Shown here in pieces: positions 540-25,289 of a stretch of DNA of 32,000 nt. The DNA comes from Candidatus Micrarchaeum sp. (GTDB lineage Archaea > Micrarchaeota > Micrarchaeia > Micrarchaeales > Micrarchaeaceae). The first letter of the stretch is position 1. Each line of letters opens with the position of its first letter. The stretch covers positions 330,001-362,000 of the forward strand of contig NZ_CP060530.1 in the NCBI RefSeq assembly GCF_016806735.1, read 5' to 3'. A program made the translations under genes and the position numbers. Under the pieces are notes generated by a model. It was given only the letters and a program-made list of their open reading frames with translations, did not search any database and had not been told where the DNA came from.

Positions 540-635
540 CGGGCCCGGCGGGATTTTCACCGGATCAAACCGAATTTGAACCCGCGACCTTCACCTTAGG
601 AGGGTGCCGCTCTATCCAAGCTGAGCTACGGGCCC
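540..635 (-). tRNA. tRNA-Arg (anticodon CCT) with a 21-nt intron in the T-loop (about 554..574)
   Basis: Minus-strand cloverleaf: acceptor GGGCCCG/CGGGCCC, D-stem GCTC/GAGC, anticodon stem GCACC/GGTGA with loop CTCCTAA, T-stem GCGGG/CCCGC, discriminator G. The T-loop TTCAAAT is interrupted by a 21-nt insert. Removing it leaves a 75-nt tRNA. Confidence 0.8.
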
Positions 636-707: not shown

Positions 708-2600
708 TTACATGCGCTTTACCGGTGTCATGCCCAAAGAAAGCAGGAGTTCCGCCATCAGCTTCTCGAAAGCCTGCGTTATCGCCAGCCTTGCGCTTTT
801 GTCGCCTTCTTCCTGCGCCTTCAATATCGGCGTTGTCTCGTAGAATTTGCTGAATTCGCTTGCCAGAAGCGTCATGTACTCTATGACTATGTTTGGCTTG
901 CACTCCCTGACTGCCTTTTCAAGCACTGTCCGTGCGTAGGATATCCTTTTTATAAGGTCGAATTCCTGCTGGGAAACTGCATAATTCTCTCCCATCTCCT
1001 TATTGGTCTCTGCTCCGGGGCTTTCGAGTATTCTTTCCGCCCTTGCATGCGTATACTCGCAATACGGCCCGGAATTGCCCTCGAAGTTAAGCGCCCTGCT
1101 CCAAGAGAAAACCAGATTCTTCTCATTGGAAAGCTTGAGGAATTCGTATTTTATGGCCGACATGGCTATCTGGCTCGCGACTTCTGCCTTTTCTGCATCG
1201 CTGAGCTCGAACCTGTCGGTTATTAGCCTCGAAGCCTTCTCTTCTGCTTCCCTTATAAGGTCATCGCACGTATATCCGACCCATGTGCCCTTCCTTCCGG
1301 AAAGCGATATTCCCTCGAGCTCAACCACTCCATACGCTATATGCTTGATCTTTTCAGAATAGTCGCTACCTCCAAGCAGTGCTATCGCGAGCCTTACAAC
1401 CGCCTGCTCGTAGCTCTGCCTGGTGTCTATTGTATTTATTGCAACGTCGGCTGCTCCAAAATCCATCTGTGAGCCCTCAGCTCCTGTAGAGTAAAGCGGC
1501 TTCTTCTGGGATCCCTGCTCCATGAACATGTGATACGAGAAGCTGTTCGGCAGCAACCCAAGCTTCCACATATGGAAGGCGATGTCCTTGGCTACGTAAT
1601 TCGGAGCACCATTGCTCCTTACAAGAACCTTTACACCCTCCTTCAGTCCGCCGAAATCACTGGCAAGGTCTCCAAGCTTCGAATGCTCTATTACTATGCA
1701 GTTTGCATATTCTCCCTCTGATGGTTTTGTTATGATTCCCTTGCCTTGCATTTTATCCAGCGCCTCGTCAAGGAGCTTCTTCCTTACTATGTCGCTTTCC
1801 CATACAAGTACGTCGTGATATATGCCCATCTTTGCCAGTGTTTCGTATTCTGCCTTGACGAAGTTTTCAGCCATTTCCCTGGCTGTCTTTGATTCGTATG
1901 TCCCGTCCTGCTCCATGTTTACAAGTATCTGCGAAATCTCGTCCTTTATATTTTTGTCTTCGAGCAGCTTGTTCACAGCGACGTAGACCTCCCCTATCAT
2001 GCTGTCGAATTTCTTATTGCTGTCGAACGTTATGCCTATTTTCTCCATGTGCGACAGGCCCCAAATGACCTCAGCGACCTGCAGCCCCAAATCGTCTATA
2101 TAATCTTCACGCTCTACTTTGTATCCTGCCCTTTCGTGTAGATTTGCAATTCCATCGCCCAAAAGGACGTTCCTAACCTGGCCCATGTGCATCGGGTGTG
2201 CGGGGTTTATGCTAGGGTATTCTATTATGGCCTTCTTCCCGCTCCATGCCTTCGAGGAGAATATTTTTTCTTCGCTTACGGCGAAATCAACGACGTCCCT
2301 TGAATACGTATTGCGCTCTATGGTAAAATTTACAAAGCCGTTCTTCTGTGATACCTCCGCCACATATTTCGGCTTCGAGATGAGTTCTACTATATTCTTT
2401 GCCAGCTCTCCCGCATTCAGAGACTTTGCCTTCGCTATCCTCAAAACAACGCTAGAGGAGATGTCGCCGAACATCTTTGATGTGTCTATGCTCTTTGCTA
2501 TCTCCTCGTCGAATTCGCCATATCCCGCCCTGTCAAGGGCATCTTTCATTGAAGACCTTATCCCTTCAATCAATTCTCCATACGGTCCGTATTCATGCAT
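708..2600 (-). CDS. argS: Arginyl-tRNA synthetase
   Basis: Class I HIGH-like motif (NPAHPMHMGQVRN), ArgRS-type MSTRxG-like motif (LSGRKG) and a DALR-type C-terminal anticodon-binding region ending ...GMTPVKRM. The first ATG is at 2600 (MHEYGPYG...). The ORF track begins at a TTG at 2642, which would overlap the upstream gene by 20 nt. Confidence 0.9.
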   Translation of the reverse strand: MHEYGPYGELIEGIRSSMKDALDRAGYGEFDEEIAKSIDTSKMFGDISSSVVLRIAKAKSLNAGELAKNIVELISKPKYVAEVSQKNGFVNFTIERNTYSRDVVDFAVSEEKIFSSKAWSGKKAIIEYPSINPAHPMHMGQVRNVLLGDGIANLHERAGYKVEREDYIDDLGLQVAEVIWGLSHMEKIGITFDSNKKFDSMIGEVYVAVNKLLEDKNIKDEISQILVNMEQDGTYESKTAREMAENFVKAEYETLAKMGIYHDVLVWESDIVRKKLLDEALDKMQGKGIITKPSEGEYANCIVIEHSKLGDLASDFGGLKEGVKVLVRSNGAPNYVAKDIAFHMWKLGLLPNSFSYHMFMEQGSQKKPLYSTGAEGSQMDFGAADVAINTIDTRQSYEQAVVRLAIALLGGSDYSEKIKHIAYGVVELEGISLSGRKGTWVGYTCDDLIREAEEKASRLITDRFELSDAEKAEVASQIAMSAIKYEFLKLSNEKNLVFSWSRALNFEGNSGPYCEYTHARAERILESPGAETNKEMGENYAVSQQEFDLIKRISYARTVLEKAVRECKPNIVIEYMTLLASEFSKFYETTPILKAQEEGDKSARLAITQAFEKLMAELLLSLGMTPVKRM

Positions 2601-2622
2601 ATTATCATTCCGCAAAATCAAA

Positions 2623-4191
2623 TCAATAGCTAATCCTGTCAAACTCCTTTATAATTCTAGGTATGGAGACGGCCACGTCATATGCAGTTGCGTGAAGCCC
2701 CATCTCTTCATTCAGCATTTCTCCTATCTGGGTGTGAACATAAACGCCTGCGGCAGCAGACTCGAAAAGCGATCCTTTGTTTATCGATATGTAGCTGGCT
2801 ATTATGCCGGCAAGCACGTCTCCTGTTCCCATTGTAGAAAGCGTCGGGCTCTCGGCCTTGTTTATCTTTAGCCTGGTGCCGTCAGTTATTATGGTGTCGT
2901 TGCCTTTGAGCACAAGCGTGCATCCGTACGTTTTCGCGAAATCTATTGCGGTATATATCTTGGAATTGAGGTCGCGCTTTGAAAGGTCGATCCCGCACAA
3001 ATGCTTGAATTCTCCGGTGTGGGGAGTCAGCACCATGTTGCTTCCTATCAGGTTCTTGTACCTGGAAAGCATTTTGAGAGCAGCGGCATCTGCAACTATC
3101 CATTTGGATGCACTTTTCTCGTAAGCGAGAAGCTCGGAGAATCCTTTGTAGTCGAAGTAGTCTTCTTTTATTCCGGGCCCTATGACCATTGCTTCGTGTC
3201 TCACTGATTTTATTTCTGCTATGTCCTCTGCAGAAAATCTTTTTTTGGATATGGTCTTGAGTATGAGCTCAGGCATCGGCCTCTGCTCGTTTACCAAAGA
3301 ATCCTCTGGCGATATTACCGTTACATAACCAGAACCGGTTTTAAGCGCGGCCAGCGCATGCTCTGCCGCCATGCCTGACAACATTGGAGCTCCCCTGTAA
3401 TCCGAGCTGCCTCCAAGAACTGCAACAGTCCCGTGCTCGTACTTGTTCGCATTTATAAACCTCGGTTTTGTCGCGAGCATTACGTCCCCTGGTCCTGTCA
3501 TAAGCTCTACAGAGGTAGGTATGCCAGTGTTCAATATGTTTACTGAATAATCGGACTTGCCTTTTTCGAGAAAGCTCTTCATTTTGTGTATTGCAAAAAG
3601 CATGTCTGGGGCCACGGCGTTTATGTTTTTCGAGCCGGTGTCGCCGTTTACACCTGAAGGCACATCTATTGATATCACATATTTATTGGAGTCGTTTATC
3701 GCCCTGATTGCGCGTGACATCGTTTCGCCGAGTCGCCCATGCATGCCTATGCCTATTATGGCATCTACAACGTCGTCGGATTTTTTCAGCATGGACCTGA
3801 GCTTTCCGATGCCTTCGGAGTCTATAACCTCTATGTCGACTATGCTTTCCGCTATCCTGTAATTGAATTTCAGGCTGTCGCTGTGTATGTCATCCGGGTT
3901 TCCCAAGAAGGCAAGCTGCACGTCCGCGATGTCCATCAGGTGCCTTGCAGCGGCCATGCCTATGGCGCCCTTGCCGCCGGGCCCGCACACGAACGTTATC
4001 CTGTCATTCCTGTGCTTCCTGCTAAGGTTTTCAGCTATCGCTGCACCGGCAGTTTCGACCATGGACCTTTCGTTTATGCCCATCGCTTTGGCGTTTGCCA
4101 TTACCGCGTAAGCGTCGTCTATACTGAGGTACTTTTTTGTGTAAAGGACAAACTCTTTTAGCTTTTGCATCTTATTAATTCCGTAATTCAT
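2623..4191 (-). CDS. nnr: Bifunctional NAD(P)H-hydrate repair enzyme (YjeF_N epimerase fused to ADP-dependent dehydratase)
   Basis: N-terminal half has a glycine-rich loop in the YjeF_N position (FVCGPGGKGAIGMAAARHL). C-terminal half has carbohydrate-kinase-like motifs KYEHGTVAVLGGSSDYRGAPMLSGMAA and GTGDVLAGIIAS. 522 aa is typical for the fusion. Confidence 0.85.
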   Translation of the reverse strand: MNYGINKMQKLKEFVLYTKKYLSIDDAYAVMANAKAMGINERSMVETAGAAIAENLSRKHRNDRITFVCGPGGKGAIGMAAARHLMDIADVQLAFLGNPDDIHSDSLKFNYRIAESIVDIEVIDSEGIGKLRSMLKKSDDVVDAIIGIGMHGRLGETMSRAIRAINDSNKYVISIDVPSGVNGDTGSKNINAVAPDMLFAIHKMKSFLEKGKSDYSVNILNTGIPTSVELMTGPGDVMLATKPRFINANKYEHGTVAVLGGSSDYRGAPMLSGMAAEHALAALKTGSGYVTVISPEDSLVNEQRPMPELILKTISKKRFSAEDIAEIKSVRHEAMVIGPGIKEDYFDYKGFSELLAYEKSASKWIVADAAALKMLSRYKNLIGSNMVLTPHTGEFKHLCGIDLSKRDLNSKIYTAIDFAKTYGCTLVLKGNDTIITDGTRLKINKAESPTLSTMGTGDVLAGIIASYISINKGSLFESAAAGVYVHTQIGEMLNEEMGLHATAYDVAVSIPRIIKEFDRISY

Positions 4192-20215: not shown

Positions 20216-20312
20216 CTAAACACCATAAACATTATTAATTTGCTAAGGAAAGAATATTAAGCATAAGGTAGCAACCTTACCTGTGCTTTTGAAAAGGGGC
20301 GCGATATAAATT

Positions 20313-20396
20313 GCCAGGATGGCAGATAGGCTATGCAGCCGCCTGCAGAGCGGCGAAGACGGGTTCGAAACCTACGCGAAAATCCCGTTCCTGGCT
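20313..20396 (+). tRNA. tRNA-Cys (anticodon GCA) with a 13-nt intron in the T-loop (about 20370..20382)
   Basis: Acceptor GCCAGGA/TCCTGGC, D-stem GCAG/ATGC (13:22 mismatch), anticodon stem GCCGC/GCGGC with loop CTGCAGA, 4-nt variable region, T-stem ACGGG/CCCGT, discriminator T. The T-loop is interrupted by 13 nt. Removing them leaves TTCGAAT and a 71-nt tRNA. Confidence 0.75.
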
Positions 20397-20444: not shown

Positions 20445-20891
20445 TCATATGTCTATCACGACACTCGACCTGTAGTGGCCTCCGATTTTTTTGACTTCTA
20501 GCGTATATCCGGAGACTCCTTTTACATATATCCTCGAATACTTTACCTCCTCGTCGACATATAAAATATTTGCAGAAACGCCGAATCTATCTCCCGATTT
20601 CGTTACCTTTATCTTCTCAACTCCATAGCCGTATGCACTAATTGCATCCAGTTCCGACAAGACCCTTTGCAGTATATACCAAAGCAGGTCCCTCTCGCTG
20701 CTAGCGCTTTCGCTTACTTCAATGGTTTTTGATACCAATTTTCCCGCCCTTACGTCCCTGCCTATGGCACGTATGTCGGCTTGCGTATCGAGCATTGCCA
20801 GCATTGAGTTCTCAAGCATTTGGGCTATGTCGTCGCCATATGCCAGGAACCTTACGTCTGCCGTGTGTGGCATAAACCTGTACCTTATCAT
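20445..20891 (-). CDS. Archease (RtcB tRNA-ligase cofactor family)
   Basis: From ATG at 20891: MIRYRFMPHTADVRFLAYGDDIAQMLENSMLAML... This has the archease N-terminal signature (f-x-x-x-HTAD-hydrophobic-x-hydrophobic-x-x-x-G). 148 aa is the typical size. The track's longer 205-aa version would overlap the divergent neighbour. Confidence 0.8.
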   Translation of the reverse strand: MIRYRFMPHTADVRFLAYGDDIAQMLENSMLAMLDTQADIRAIGRDVRAGKLVSKTIEVSESASSERDLLWYILQRVLSELDAISAYGYGVEKIKVTKSGDRFGVSANILYVDEEVKYSRIYVKGVSGYTLEVKKIGGHYRSSVVIDI

Positions 20892-21002
20892 AAAAGCGCC
20901 TGCGCAAGCTAAAAATTGCTGATAATTCAACGGAACGAAATTATTTAGTATGTGTTTGCCAAAAGCTATACGTCCTATGAAGAAAAGAGTAACTGCTGAA
21001 CA

Positions 21003-22622
21003 ATGATGAAGCCCATTTCGGCTGAGGACTTTTACGGTGTTTTGATGGCAATAAGCAGCCATAAAGTAAGTGCTCGTGTGGCAGCCACGGCAATACTATT
21101 TATAGCATTCCTGGTAGCAGCGTACAACTCAATCGCCGTTACCGGATTCTCGATATCGGATTCCAACCCTGCCGGGTACATAATAGTCCCGATGCTCATG
21201 ACGCTGGTATTCATAATATTCTCGCTGAAGGAGAATCTCGTCATCATCTACAGAAAACGAAACCTCGCATACGGGGCAATCCTGGCATTGATATACTTTG
21301 CAATATATGCCTATTCAAAAGTGTCCTTGTCTTTCCTCTTCCAGACCTACAGGATAGATGCGCTGCTCTTTCCCATACTGCTATCGTCATTTGCCCTCAT
21401 TCTCTTTGGTCCGTCGGGCCTAAACAAGCTCAAGCCTGCTGTTGTGTTCTCCATATTCGCATCTCCTTTGATACTGATGCCATTGCTTAACCTGTCGGGT
21501 GCGTGGACGAGCTTCAACGCATATTCCGTTGTCTCTGTATTGAAGCTTTTCGGCGTTCCGGTCCTTAGCCACGGCCTTGAAATAACCGGTGCATCTGGCT
21601 CGTCGATATCCATAGCTTCAACATGCGCAGACATCGCAGCCTTTGTGGCGATGCTGCTCTTTCTGATACCGATAGCATACCTTTATGAAGGGAATCCTGG
21701 CAAGAGGGCCATATGGGTCGCTTCAGGAATGGTTCTTCTCTTCGTGCTTAACATAATCAGGATGTCGCTCATAGCAGCAGTATGGGCTTATTATGGGCTC
21801 AGCTCTGCGCTAAACACTGTGCATCTTTTTATAGGCCAGCTGCTCTTCGACATAACCCTGGTCGTCATGATACTTCTGGCGCCAAAATTCTCAATGCGCC
21901 TGGGTGTGCAGAGAACGGGGCAAAAGTACAGTCGCAGCACAAATTCAGGGGCATCCAATGGCGCAATCTTTGACAAGTCGTTCGCGGTTCCCGCACTTTC
22001 CGTAATAATTGTCGCATTCCTGGTATTCGCATTCACCTTGCCACAGGCAAGCTATCAATACATTAGCCCATTCTCATTCGCGGATAATTTCTCATACGTT
22101 TCCAATTCGAGCGTTATATCATCTTACGATGCCGTCGCCCTGGGATCTGGGTACAGCATGAAATCAGTGACCTTCGGGGGCAGGTCAGAGCTTTTCGGCA
22201 TATTCAGCACAAATGACATAAATACTACTACCAACAGCTTCCTTTACATCAACTCCAGCGCGAGACCTACAATGCCACGCATAAACCTGCATCAGCTCGG
22301 CACAATACTTATGCACAGGGAGGAATCAACAATTTCTGGAATAACTATAAATGCTTATGAAATATCATCAAATGGCAAGCTTTTCCAGGTGAACTACATA
22401 TCAATGCCAAATAAAATCTATGGCAATTACACTGTCGCTAACATGGAATTCGTAACCCTAATGAATTCTACCTCGGATTTACAATCCTGCAGAACAGAAT
22501 ACGGTGCAATACAAAGCGTTTATTCGTACATATACAACGCACTGCACTTTAGCTTCGAAGGAAACAACTACGGAATATTCTGCGCGGCGTTCAACGAAGC
22601 CAAATTGGCGCAGCAGAGGTAA
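21003..22622 (+). CDS. Exosortase/archaeosortase-family membrane protein with extra TM and about 190-aa C-terminal extracytoplasmic domain
   Basis: About 8 TM helices. Family-like blocks: VLKLFGVPVLSHGLEITGASGSSISIASTCADIAAF (conserved Cys, residue 208), FVLNIIRMSLIA (N-x-x-R, Arg253), NTVHLFIGQLLF (His274). A further TM (ALSVIIVAFLVFAFTL) is followed by a sequon-rich soluble domain. Confidence 0.65.
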   Translation: MMKPISAEDFYGVLMAISSHKVSARVAATAILFIAFLVAAYNSIAVTGFSISDSNPAGYIIVPMLMTLVFIIFSLKENLVIIYRKRNLAYGAILALIYFAIYAYSKVSLSFLFQTYRIDALLFPILLSSFALILFGPSGLNKLKPAVVFSIFASPLILMPLLNLSGAWTSFNAYSVVSVLKLFGVPVLSHGLEITGASGSSISIASTCADIAAFVAMLLFLIPIAYLYEGNPGKRAIWVASGMVLLFVLNIIRMSLIAAVWAYYGLSSALNTVHLFIGQLLFDITLVVMILLAPKFSMRLGVQRTGQKYSRSTNSGASNGAIFDKSFAVPALSVIIVAFLVFAFTLPQASYQYISPFSFADNFSYVSNSSVISSYDAVALGSGYSMKSVTFGGRSELFGIFSTNDINTTTNSFLYINSSARPTMPRINLHQLGTILMHREESTISGITINAYEISSNGKLFQVNYISMPNKIYGNYTVANMEFVTLMNSTSDLQSCRTEYGAIQSVYSYIYNALHFSFEGNNYGIFCAAFNEAKLAQQR

Positions 22623-24389: not shown

Positions 24390-25289
24390 TCAGCGCCTCC
24401 TGTTGAAGCGCTTCTTGCCGTCGAATTTCCTCCCGTGTCCATGCCCCTGCCTGTTGCTGTCATACTGCCTGGTGGGCTTTTCCTTGACCGGCGAGCTTGT
24501 TATGCGCTTTATGCCGTTGTCTATGTCTACCTTGAGCTTCTCAGCTATGAAATTCTTTGTATAATAGTCTGCCTTCAACGCCATTGTTATCTTGGTGGCG
24601 TAAAGCCTTGCTATCCTCCCTTTTATGTCCTTTCTTGCATTGGTCACTTCCGGGAGCTTGAATATGACTCCGTACTTCGGTGGCTTGCTTCCGAATTTTA
24701 TGTGCTTGAAAAGAGCCTTCTCTGCGCCTAGCAGCTGCACGGTGCTTGCAGGGAATGTTGCAAGCCTTTCCATGGAGCCGGCCTTGCTGAGAAGCTCTGC
24801 TGCTATTTTGTCGTCAGTAAGATAAGCGGTATTCGGGAGAAGCCTCTGCGACGCTGCGCTTATGTATAATTCAAGCTTGTCTATGGAATCGCTTATCTCG
24901 AGAAGCAGCTTAGCGTACTCTATGACTACGTTCCTTTCCTCGTCGCCCATGCGCCTGCCTATGCTGTCTTTCAGCTTCTTCTCTATAGATTCGGCCTTGC
25001 TCGCATCGCCTATGGCGCTTTCTATGGCTTCCCTGCCTATCTCCCTGTCGGAATTCAATATTAGGACCAGAGAAGCAAGAGCCTTGGGGCTGGATACGTT
25101 TATTTCAGGGAAGTACAAGCCGTACCATTCAGTCAGCCTCTCATAGAACAGGTTCTGCGACTTTACCGCTTCATTGTAGGCATTTATCGCCTGTATAAGT
25201 GCGTATTCCTCACTCTCGTAGTTAAGCTTTATCTTCTCCTTTGCGGTGCTTATCATGCGCTTTCTTAGCTCTTCGAAATCGTTTTCCAA
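24390..25289 (-). CDS. nop5: Nop5 (Nop56/58-family) C/D box sRNP core protein, lacking the N-terminal domain
   Basis: NOSIC/coiled-coil start ERLTEWYGLYFPEI. Nop-domain block LLGAEKALFKHIKFGSKPPKYGVIFKLPEV. Basic C-terminal tail (GHGHGRKFDGKKRFNRRR). Starts at TTG 25289 (first ATG at 25256). An in-frame TAA lies immediately upstream. Confidence 0.8.
   Translation of the reverse strand: MENDFEELRKRMISTAKEKIKLNYESEEYALIQAINAYNEAVKSQNLFYERLTEWYGLYFPEINVSSPKALASLVLILNSDREIGREAIESAIGDASKAESIEKKLKDSIGRRMGDEERNVVIEYAKLLLEISDSIDKLELYISAASQRLLPNTAYLTDDKIAAELLSKAGSMERLATFPASTVQLLGAEKALFKHIKFGSKPPKYGVIFKLPEVTNARKDIKGRIARLYATKITMALKADYYTKNFIAEKLKVDIDNGIKRITSSPVKEKPTRQYDSNRQGHGHGRKFDGKKRFNRRR

Follow-up and report, generated by a model that had tools for sequence, protein, structure and literature searches.

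The window, by which we mean the whole 32,000-nt stretch of DNA analyzed here, carries a tRNA-Cys(GCA) gene on its plus strand, with a divergent gene for a CBS-domain protein on one side and a convergent archease gene on the other. Proteins encoded in the window include an archaeal ThrRS with an archaea-specific editing domain, ArgRS, Nop5, NMD3, SecDF and archease. A near-identical contig was found in GCA_027336595.1 (DAHXHU010000001.1), and the best homologs of the CBS-domain protein beside tRNA-Cys come from MAGs labelled Micrarchaeota, Micrarchaeia or 'Marsarchaeota'. The features that matter for what follows are these:

20313 to 20396, plus strand: precursor of tRNA-Cys(GCA), 84 nt, made up of a 71-nt mature body and a predicted 13-nt intron; discriminator U at 20396; CCA not encoded
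20313 to 20369, plus strand: 5' exon, tRNA positions 1–59 (acceptor 5' strand, D-arm, anticodon arm, 4-nt variable region, start of the T-arm)
20345 to 20347, plus strand: anticodon GCA
20359 to 20363, plus strand: T-stem 5' strand, ACGGG
20364 to 20369, plus strand: T-loop U54–A59, TTCGAA
20364 to 20367, plus strand: exonic strand of the central helix H (T54 T55 C56 G57), partner of CGAA at 20377–20380
20368 to 20370, plus strand: 5' bulge, A58 and A59 plus A (intron nucleotide 1); predicted 5' cut between 20369 and 20370
20370 to 20382, plus strand: predicted 13-nt intron, A-CCTACG-CGAA-AA, between T-loop positions 59 and 60
20371 to 20376, plus strand: middle part of the intron, CCTACG, whose outer C and G pair around the tetraloop CTAC
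20377 to 20380, plus strand: intronic strand of the central helix H, CGAA, pairing with T54–G57
20381 to 20383, plus strand: 3' bulge, A and A plus U60; predicted 3' cut between 20382 and 20383
20383 to 20396, plus strand: 3' exon, positions 60–73 (U60, T-stem 3' strand CCCGT, acceptor 3' strand TCCTGGC, discriminator U)
20445 to 20891, minus strand: archease gene (cofactor family of the RtcB tRNA ligase; PF01951, E = 1.9e-15)
540 to 635, minus strand: precursor of tRNA-Arg(CCT), 96 nt; mature tRNA 75 nt; 21-nt intron at 554–574, position 59/60

Read 5' to 3' on the plus strand, the precursor at 20313–20396 has the layout GCCAGGA TG GCA G ATAGGCT A TGC A GCCGC CTGCAGA GCGGC GAAG ACGGG TTCGAA / ACCTACGCGAAAA / T CCCGT TCCTGGC T, with the slashes enclosing the predicted intron. 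Between the T-stem strands ACGGG and CCCGT, the interrupted T-loop is thus 20 nt long (TTCGAAACCTACGCGAAAAT). ARAGORN missed this precursor and returned only tRNA-Arg and tRNA-Leu when run on the whole window; the Rfam tRNA model had no match at the Cys locus, either at the gathering score or at E ≤ 10. After excision of the 13 nt, ARAGORN called a 71-nt tRNA-Cys(GCA). The spliced sequence is a complete canonical tRNA: seven Watson-Crick pairs make up its acceptor stem, its anticodon stem and T-stem are each of 5 bp, the T-loop is TTCGAAT and the discriminator is U; both its length and its T-loop are those that the first-pass annotation of this DNA had foreseen. Excision at offsets 4, 5 or 6 yielded an identical spliced product, because CGAAA is present at both junctions and makes the three registers equivalent. 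We also performed a brute-force scan in which each 10–120 nt segment fitting a 4-bp central helix was excised, on both strands, and the product passed to ARAGORN (81,804 candidates). The Leu, Cys and Arg loci alone were recovered, Cys through excision of 20370–20382. The scan detected no further hidden single-intron tRNA in the window (two-intron or split tRNAs lie outside its reach).

Archaeal bulge-helix-bulge (BHB) introns are cleaved after the second base of each 3-nt bulge, and this rule places the intron at 20370–20382, that is, at position 59/60. At its minimum energy (–34 kcal/mol, z = –2.27), the 84-nt precursor folds into the cloverleaf, a TTCG:CGAA helix, an AAU bulge and the T-stem, and so matches exactly the order of helix, bulge and stem that had been proposed from inspection of the letters. 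By itself, the 30-nt T-arm hairpin is statistically not unusual (z = –1.17). In the fold, the AAU 3' bulge (20381–20383) is flanked by the 5-bp T-stem as outer helix, and the 5' bulge is closed by the single possible pair C20371–G20376. A strict hBHBh' motif has an inner helix of at least 2 bp; with one closing pair only, the motif is therefore relaxed (hBH/BHL). The first-pass annotation had stated that there is no inner helix, which was slightly too strong in view of this one closing pair, itself covarying among orthologs, but is right in that an inner helix of 2 bp or more is absent. Its wording 'a BHL or HBh'-type variant' likewise needs trimming: relaxed BHL is apt, but Fujishima et al. 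name this shape hBH (equivalent to BHL), not HBh'. Judged from its sequence and predicted fold, the segment at 20370–20382 is a putative protein-spliced intron whose BHB motif is relaxed and belongs to the hBH/BHL class.

On the upstream side, between the divergent CBS gene and tRNA-Cys, a block of roughly 45 nt (AAACATTATTAAT..GCTAAGGAAAGAATATTAAGCATAAGGTAG) within 20225–20280 is highly conserved in relatives and probably acts as a promoter region, shared or bidirectional. Immediately before tRNA-Cys, the TATA-like 'GATATAAATT' is not conserved.

A comparison with orthologous tRNA-Cys genes, which had been suggested as a check on the intron, revealed inserts at the same site and a motif kept in 29 distinct sequences. 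The gene order archease, tRNA-Cys, CBS-domain gene, ThrRS is maintained in relatives whose CBS-protein identity ranges from 90% to 43%. Syntenic relatives carry tRNA-Cys inserts of 13, 16, 13, 16 and 19 nt, all at the same site and accompanied by compensatory T-stem changes; two others (L007 and L012) have an intron-less tRNA-Cys with the T-loop TTCGACT. When one genome of each species was scanned with a tRNA-Cys pattern, 53 loci came out, all but a few of them in records titled Micrarchaeota, Micrarchaeia, Micrarchaeaceae or Mancarchaeum. Among these species-representative genomes, an insert of 13–29 nt at 59/60 is present in 31 of the 53 loci and absent from 22, and the carriers include Micrarchaeaceae-labelled MAGs with 13-nt and 16-nt inserts. 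Of the 52 related genomes covered by the scan, none had both an intron-bearing and an intron-less tRNA-Cys that fit the pattern.

Helix H is 100% paired throughout the 29 distinct sequences that carry the intron, its intronic strand reading CGAA in 27 and CGGA in two, and the 3' bulge is A-N-U in all 29. The invariant T-loop supplies the exonic strand of the 4-bp helix and leaves that helix no room to covary. The closing pair does vary (alignment columns 59 and 80): it is C-G in 17 sequences, U-A in 12 and unpaired in none, a pattern that may reflect few evolutionary events, the sequences being related. Both the sequence and the length of the intron's middle part drift freely; the inner helix, 1 bp long in the window, extends to as many as 8 bp among orthologs, with 2–8 bp in the longer inserts, and on the predicted structures the ortholog family spans strict to relaxed motifs. 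Taken as a whole, 96.7% of cells in the structure are paired, versus about 40–49% when the partners are slid, and none of 500 shuffles reached the observed covariation score. Since the architecture of the insert is kept, with covariation, in 29 distinct orthologous sequences, the structure is not a product of chance. Moreover, splicing the orthologs at 59/60 produces the T-loops UUCGACU, UUCGAUU or UUCGAAU, the first two of which are the T-loops of intron-less relatives; this match lends independent support to the 59/60 register. Collectively, the ARAGORN call after excision, the fold, the brute-force scan and the orthologs bear out the 13-nt T-loop intron that had been proposed for this tRNA-Cys(GCA).

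We noted that the intron-less tRNA-Cys of L007 (about 3840–3990, minus strand; 72% CBS-protein identity) is nested among intron-bearing lineages. It is identical over its full sequence to that of L062, and its T-arm (GAGGG/TTCGACT/CCCTC) and D-loop are unlike those of its neighbors. From the sequences, this case points to a putative precise intron loss or gene replacement. We also noted that four entries titled 'Candidatus Marsarchaeota archaeon' (FK_Sedi bins; L019, L056, L062 and L064) have the same tRNA-Cys, synteny and epsilon-type splicing endonuclease (EndA) as Micrarchaeota-labelled MAGs, and that one match (L041) is titled Methanothrix sp. Because 'Marsarchaeota'-labelled and Micrarchaeota-labelled MAGs have an identical tRNA-Cys in common, the 'Marsarchaeota' label is probably a naming artefact; the FK_Sedi bins and the Methanothrix-titled match probably reflect mislabelling or contamination.

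Two of the three tRNAs in the window are interrupted at the identical position, as had been observed at the outset: the intron of tRNA-Arg(CCT), at 554–574, also lies at 59/60. Its motif is complete and of the strict hBHBh' type, with a TTCA/TGAA helix, AAU/AAU bulges and a UCGG/CCGG inner helix. Both ARAGORN (560–636) and Rfam (561–635) mis-called this tRNA: intron bases served as a false T-arm and acceptor strand, and the acceptor stem came out broken. Relatives of tRNA-Arg(CCT) from metagenomes include two with a 22-nt intron at 59/60 (L068 and L069) and one without (L067). We also noted that tRNA-Arg(CCT) lies directly downstream of the ArgRS gene (708–2642, minus strand).

Next, we considered the splicing enzymes. 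Neither an EndA nor an RtcB gene was found in the 32-kb window or in the fetched loci close to it. EndA was searched for with Pfam and by tblastn, using M. jannaschii EndA and a partial ARMAN-2 EndA (PDB 4fz2 fragments from an alignment) as queries. In the profile search, homologs of the catalytic alpha and betaC units of ARMAN-2 EndA proved widespread in Micrarchaeota MAGs, 'Marsarchaeota'-labelled ones included. A 125-aa EndA fragment as query gave mostly 180–220-aa C-terminal pieces, and the profile search gave full-length forms, one of which (P0139) is colinear with PDB 4fz2 residues 5–325 (E = 1.3e-132). None of these homologs could be traced to GCA_027336595.1; from the clade, we infer that an epsilon2 enzyme is also encoded in this genome. 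We noted an EndA homolog present as two overlapping ORFs (L070, 2414–3582) of 197 and 193 aa, together 390 aa, the length of the ARMAN-2 epsilon protomer, and many EndA database matches are such C-terminal pieces on long contigs. The two-ORF layout could stem from a frameshift, an assembly error or a genuinely split gene.

The archease gene is convergent with tRNA-Cys, 48 nt from the 3' end of the tRNA, and this adjacency is kept in relatives; a functional link between archease and the intron is conceivable. An EndA gene lies beside the archease-exosortase pair in two MAGs (L071, 1–1416; L074, 1501–3342), whose archease is only 34–38% identical to that of the window, which marks them as distant relatives. 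In these more distant Micrarchaeota MAGs, it is the epsilon-type splicing endonuclease gene that occupies the side of archease on which tRNA-Cys lies in the window. The adjacency of archease, tRNA-Cys and EndA may represent a loose tRNA-splicing neighborhood or a coincidence.

A separate observation concerns a candidate C/D-box sRNA at 20970–21030 (plus strand), between the archease and exosortase genes. It has a terminal stem GUCC...GGAC and the boxes C AUGAAGA, D' CUGA, C' UGAUGA and D CUGA, and in Rfam it comes closest to sR14, which it matches with 34.1 bits, short of the gathering score of 38. In relatives as distant as 56% CBS-protein identity the candidate hardly changes, guides AAAGAGUAACUG and AGCCCAUUUCGG included, and its flanks diverge; upstream lies a conserved A/T-rich promoter-like block. 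No target of the guides was found in the window, tRNAs included. A Nop5 gene is near the candidate, at 24390–25289 (minus strand).

The explanation that we favor, with high confidence, is that the locus is a functional and probably the sole tRNA-Cys(GCA) gene of a Micrarchaeota-type (DPANN) archaeon, interrupted at 59/60 by a 13-nt protein-spliced intron of the BHB type. It draws on the gene itself, the motif, its conservation and covariation, and the epsilon-type EndA in related MAGs. In the precursor, presumed to be expressed, U54-U55-C56-G57 would pair with the intron bases CGAA to form the 4-bp central helix, with the T-stem serving as outer helix. A-A-U60 would then form the 3' bulge, and A58-A59-A the 5' bulge, closed by one C-G pair and its tetraloop. 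A broad-specificity endonuclease, which in this lineage would be of the three-unit epsilon2 type known from ARMAN-2, would cut between 20369 and 20370 and between 20382 and 20383, these being the predicted phosphodiesters. By analogy, the cleavage of the ARMAN-2 ortholog in vitro, known from the literature, suggests that the precursor would be a substrate. The genome's own RtcB-type ligase, aided by archease, would presumably join the halves into a 71-nt tRNA with the T-loop UUCGAAU, and the freed 7-nt loop could then make its normal tertiary contacts.

Two other fates of the insert deserve consideration. Standard tRNA finders fail at the Cys locus and the CGAAA repeat at the junctions resembles the scar of a small tandem duplication, as would be expected of a pseudogene, that is, of a formerly intact gene that a 13-nt insertion or duplication in its T-loop had put out of action, with another copy decoding cysteine. 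Nevertheless, the exons are perfectly tRNA-like, and a same-site insert is kept in 31 species-level genomes with compensatory T-stem changes and with strict conservation of the motif-forming bases only, which differs from what decay would leave behind. Nor did any scanned relative hold intron-bearing and intron-less copies together, and the ARMAN-2 counterpart is a proven endonuclease substrate; we therefore regard a pseudogene as very improbable. The insert might instead be retained, so that the mature tRNA-Cys keeps an enlarged 20-nt T-loop or an extra mini-hairpin as a lineage-specific structural variant. Sequence alone does not prove excision, and DPANN tRNAs are odd in other respects: ARMAN-2 has a tRNA whose D-arm contains one Watson-Crick pair (PMC3239211). 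However, the insert varies in length from 13 to 29 nt with a free middle, and its conserved part is the geometry that an endonuclease recognizes, a 4-bp helix with flanking 3-nt bulges. Pairing of U54–G57 with the insert would moreover abolish the contact between T-loop and D-loop on which the L-shape depends, close relatives work with an ordinary 7-nt loop that equals the one predicted after splicing, and the ARMAN-2 insert is cleaved by EndA. Retention is accordingly as hard to credit as a pseudogene, and a spliced intron accounts for the locus far better.

A further alternative bears on the origin of the introns. The last five intron bases and the first five exon bases are common to the Arg and Cys introns (the GAAAAT-CCCG junction), and the first-pass annotation had read this junction as a sign of intron spread or shared origin. 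Both introns also sit at 59/60, and transposition of introns between tRNA genes was inferred in Thermoproteales (Fujishima 2010, as cited in PMC4090602), so the two could descend from a single mobile intron that was copied from one tRNA gene to another. The argument from the junction does not hold, however, since GAA pairs with U54-U55-C56, the following AA and U60 form the bulge, and CCCG is the near-universal 3' strand of the T-stem; every base common to the two introns is dictated by the T-arm (U54-U55-C56 pairing, U60, C61–C63) and by bulge geometry. Beyond these forced bases, the introns ACCTACGC and TTCGGTTTGATCCGGT share nothing, and their unconstrained parts are unlike in sequence and length. 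Each, moreover, has its own same-site orthologs in distant relatives, which fits old, vertically inherited and independent introns. The two introns offer too little sequence for their homology to be tested statistically; on the evidence above, we consider a common mobile source unlikely.

The intron of tRNA-Cys is, then, a feature already known for the lineage: a genuine and ordinary ortholog of a published, biochemically tested intron. That T-loop introns are systematic in this lineage is borne out by the 31 of 53 tRNA-Cys loci, by the Arg orthologs and by the published ARMAN-2 case, and relaxed-motif introns at T-loop position 59/60 thus characterize Micrarchaeota as a lineage rather than ARMAN-2 in particular. 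To the work of Fujishima et al., our results add the breadth across Micrarchaeota, the 13–29 nt series, the lineages with precise loss and the covarying single closing pair. They also matter for annotation: ARAGORN and the Rfam tRNA model miss tRNA-Cys and mis-call tRNA-Arg(CCT), and DPANN MAGs would seem to be without tRNA-Cys unless a BHB-aware finder is used. The comparative series, which runs from 13 to 29 nt and from strict to minimal motifs and includes intron-less relatives, could help to define the smallest substrate that the epsilon2 endonuclease accepts. Tentatively, we suggest that the tRNA-Cys 59/60 intron is ancient, vertically inherited in Micrarchaeota and precisely lost in several lineages, and that its 'relaxed' form might be a minimal strict motif, in which one covarying pair delimits the 5' bulge; this is a possibility on which we would not yet rely. 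If true, the closing pair would be a recognition determinant of the epsilon2 endonuclease and would mark the minimum that an archaeal EndA requires from the intron.

Among known systems, the closest is the pre-tRNA-Cys(GCA) of ARMAN-2 (Candidatus Micrarchaeum acidiphilum), which has a 13-nt intron at 59/60 with a relaxed hBH motif (Fujishima et al. 2011, NAR 39:9695, PMC3239211) and is cut at the expected sites in vitro by the recombinant three-unit epsilon2 EndA (PMC3239211). The two share the tRNA and its anticodon, the 59/60 site, the 13-nt length, the phylum-level lineage and the motif class, namely an outer helix, a 3' bulge and a 4-bp helix with the 5' side open to the loop. They differ in organism, the present one belonging to an uncultured MAG lineage with some 'Marsarchaeota'-labelled relatives, and Micrarchaeaceae-labelled genomes have the T-stem AGGGG/CCCCT where the window has ACGGG/CCCGT. 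The intron of the window is an ortholog of the published one, an assignment made on tRNA, position, length, motif class and phylum and not on a sequence alignment. No ARMAN-2 record was among the 53 loci of the tRNA-Cys pattern scan; continuity between the two is provided by the same tRNA and site in 31 of those loci, Micrarchaeaceae-labelled MAGs included.

Position 59/60 is among the known non-canonical intron positions (PMC4090602), and relaxed motifs are cut only by (alpha-beta)2 and epsilon2 EndAs (PMC6379350). Non-canonical BHB introns of Crenarchaeota/Thermoproteales (Marck & Grosjean 2003; Sugahara 2007, 2008, as summarized in the review PMC4090602) resemble the present one in being protein-spliced, in lying at sites other than 37/38, 59/60 included, in their relaxed hBH/HBh' motifs and in their dependence on a broad-specificity endonuclease. 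There, the enzyme is a heterotetrameric (alpha-beta)2 EndA with the crenarchaeal loop, whereas that of Micrarchaeota is a single-chain, three-unit epsilon2 enzyme. Many introns of Thermoproteales, in addition, look recently transposed; the Cys intron, by contrast, is orthologous across many species. With the canonical strict hBHBh' intron at 37/38, the window intron has in common two 3-nt bulges 4 bp apart, 2',3'-cyclic phosphate and 5'-OH ends, and ligation by RtcB, the last two on the predicted pathway. Unlike the canonical intron, it lies in the T-loop, uses U54–G57 as the exonic strand of its central helix and has an inner helix of a single pair.
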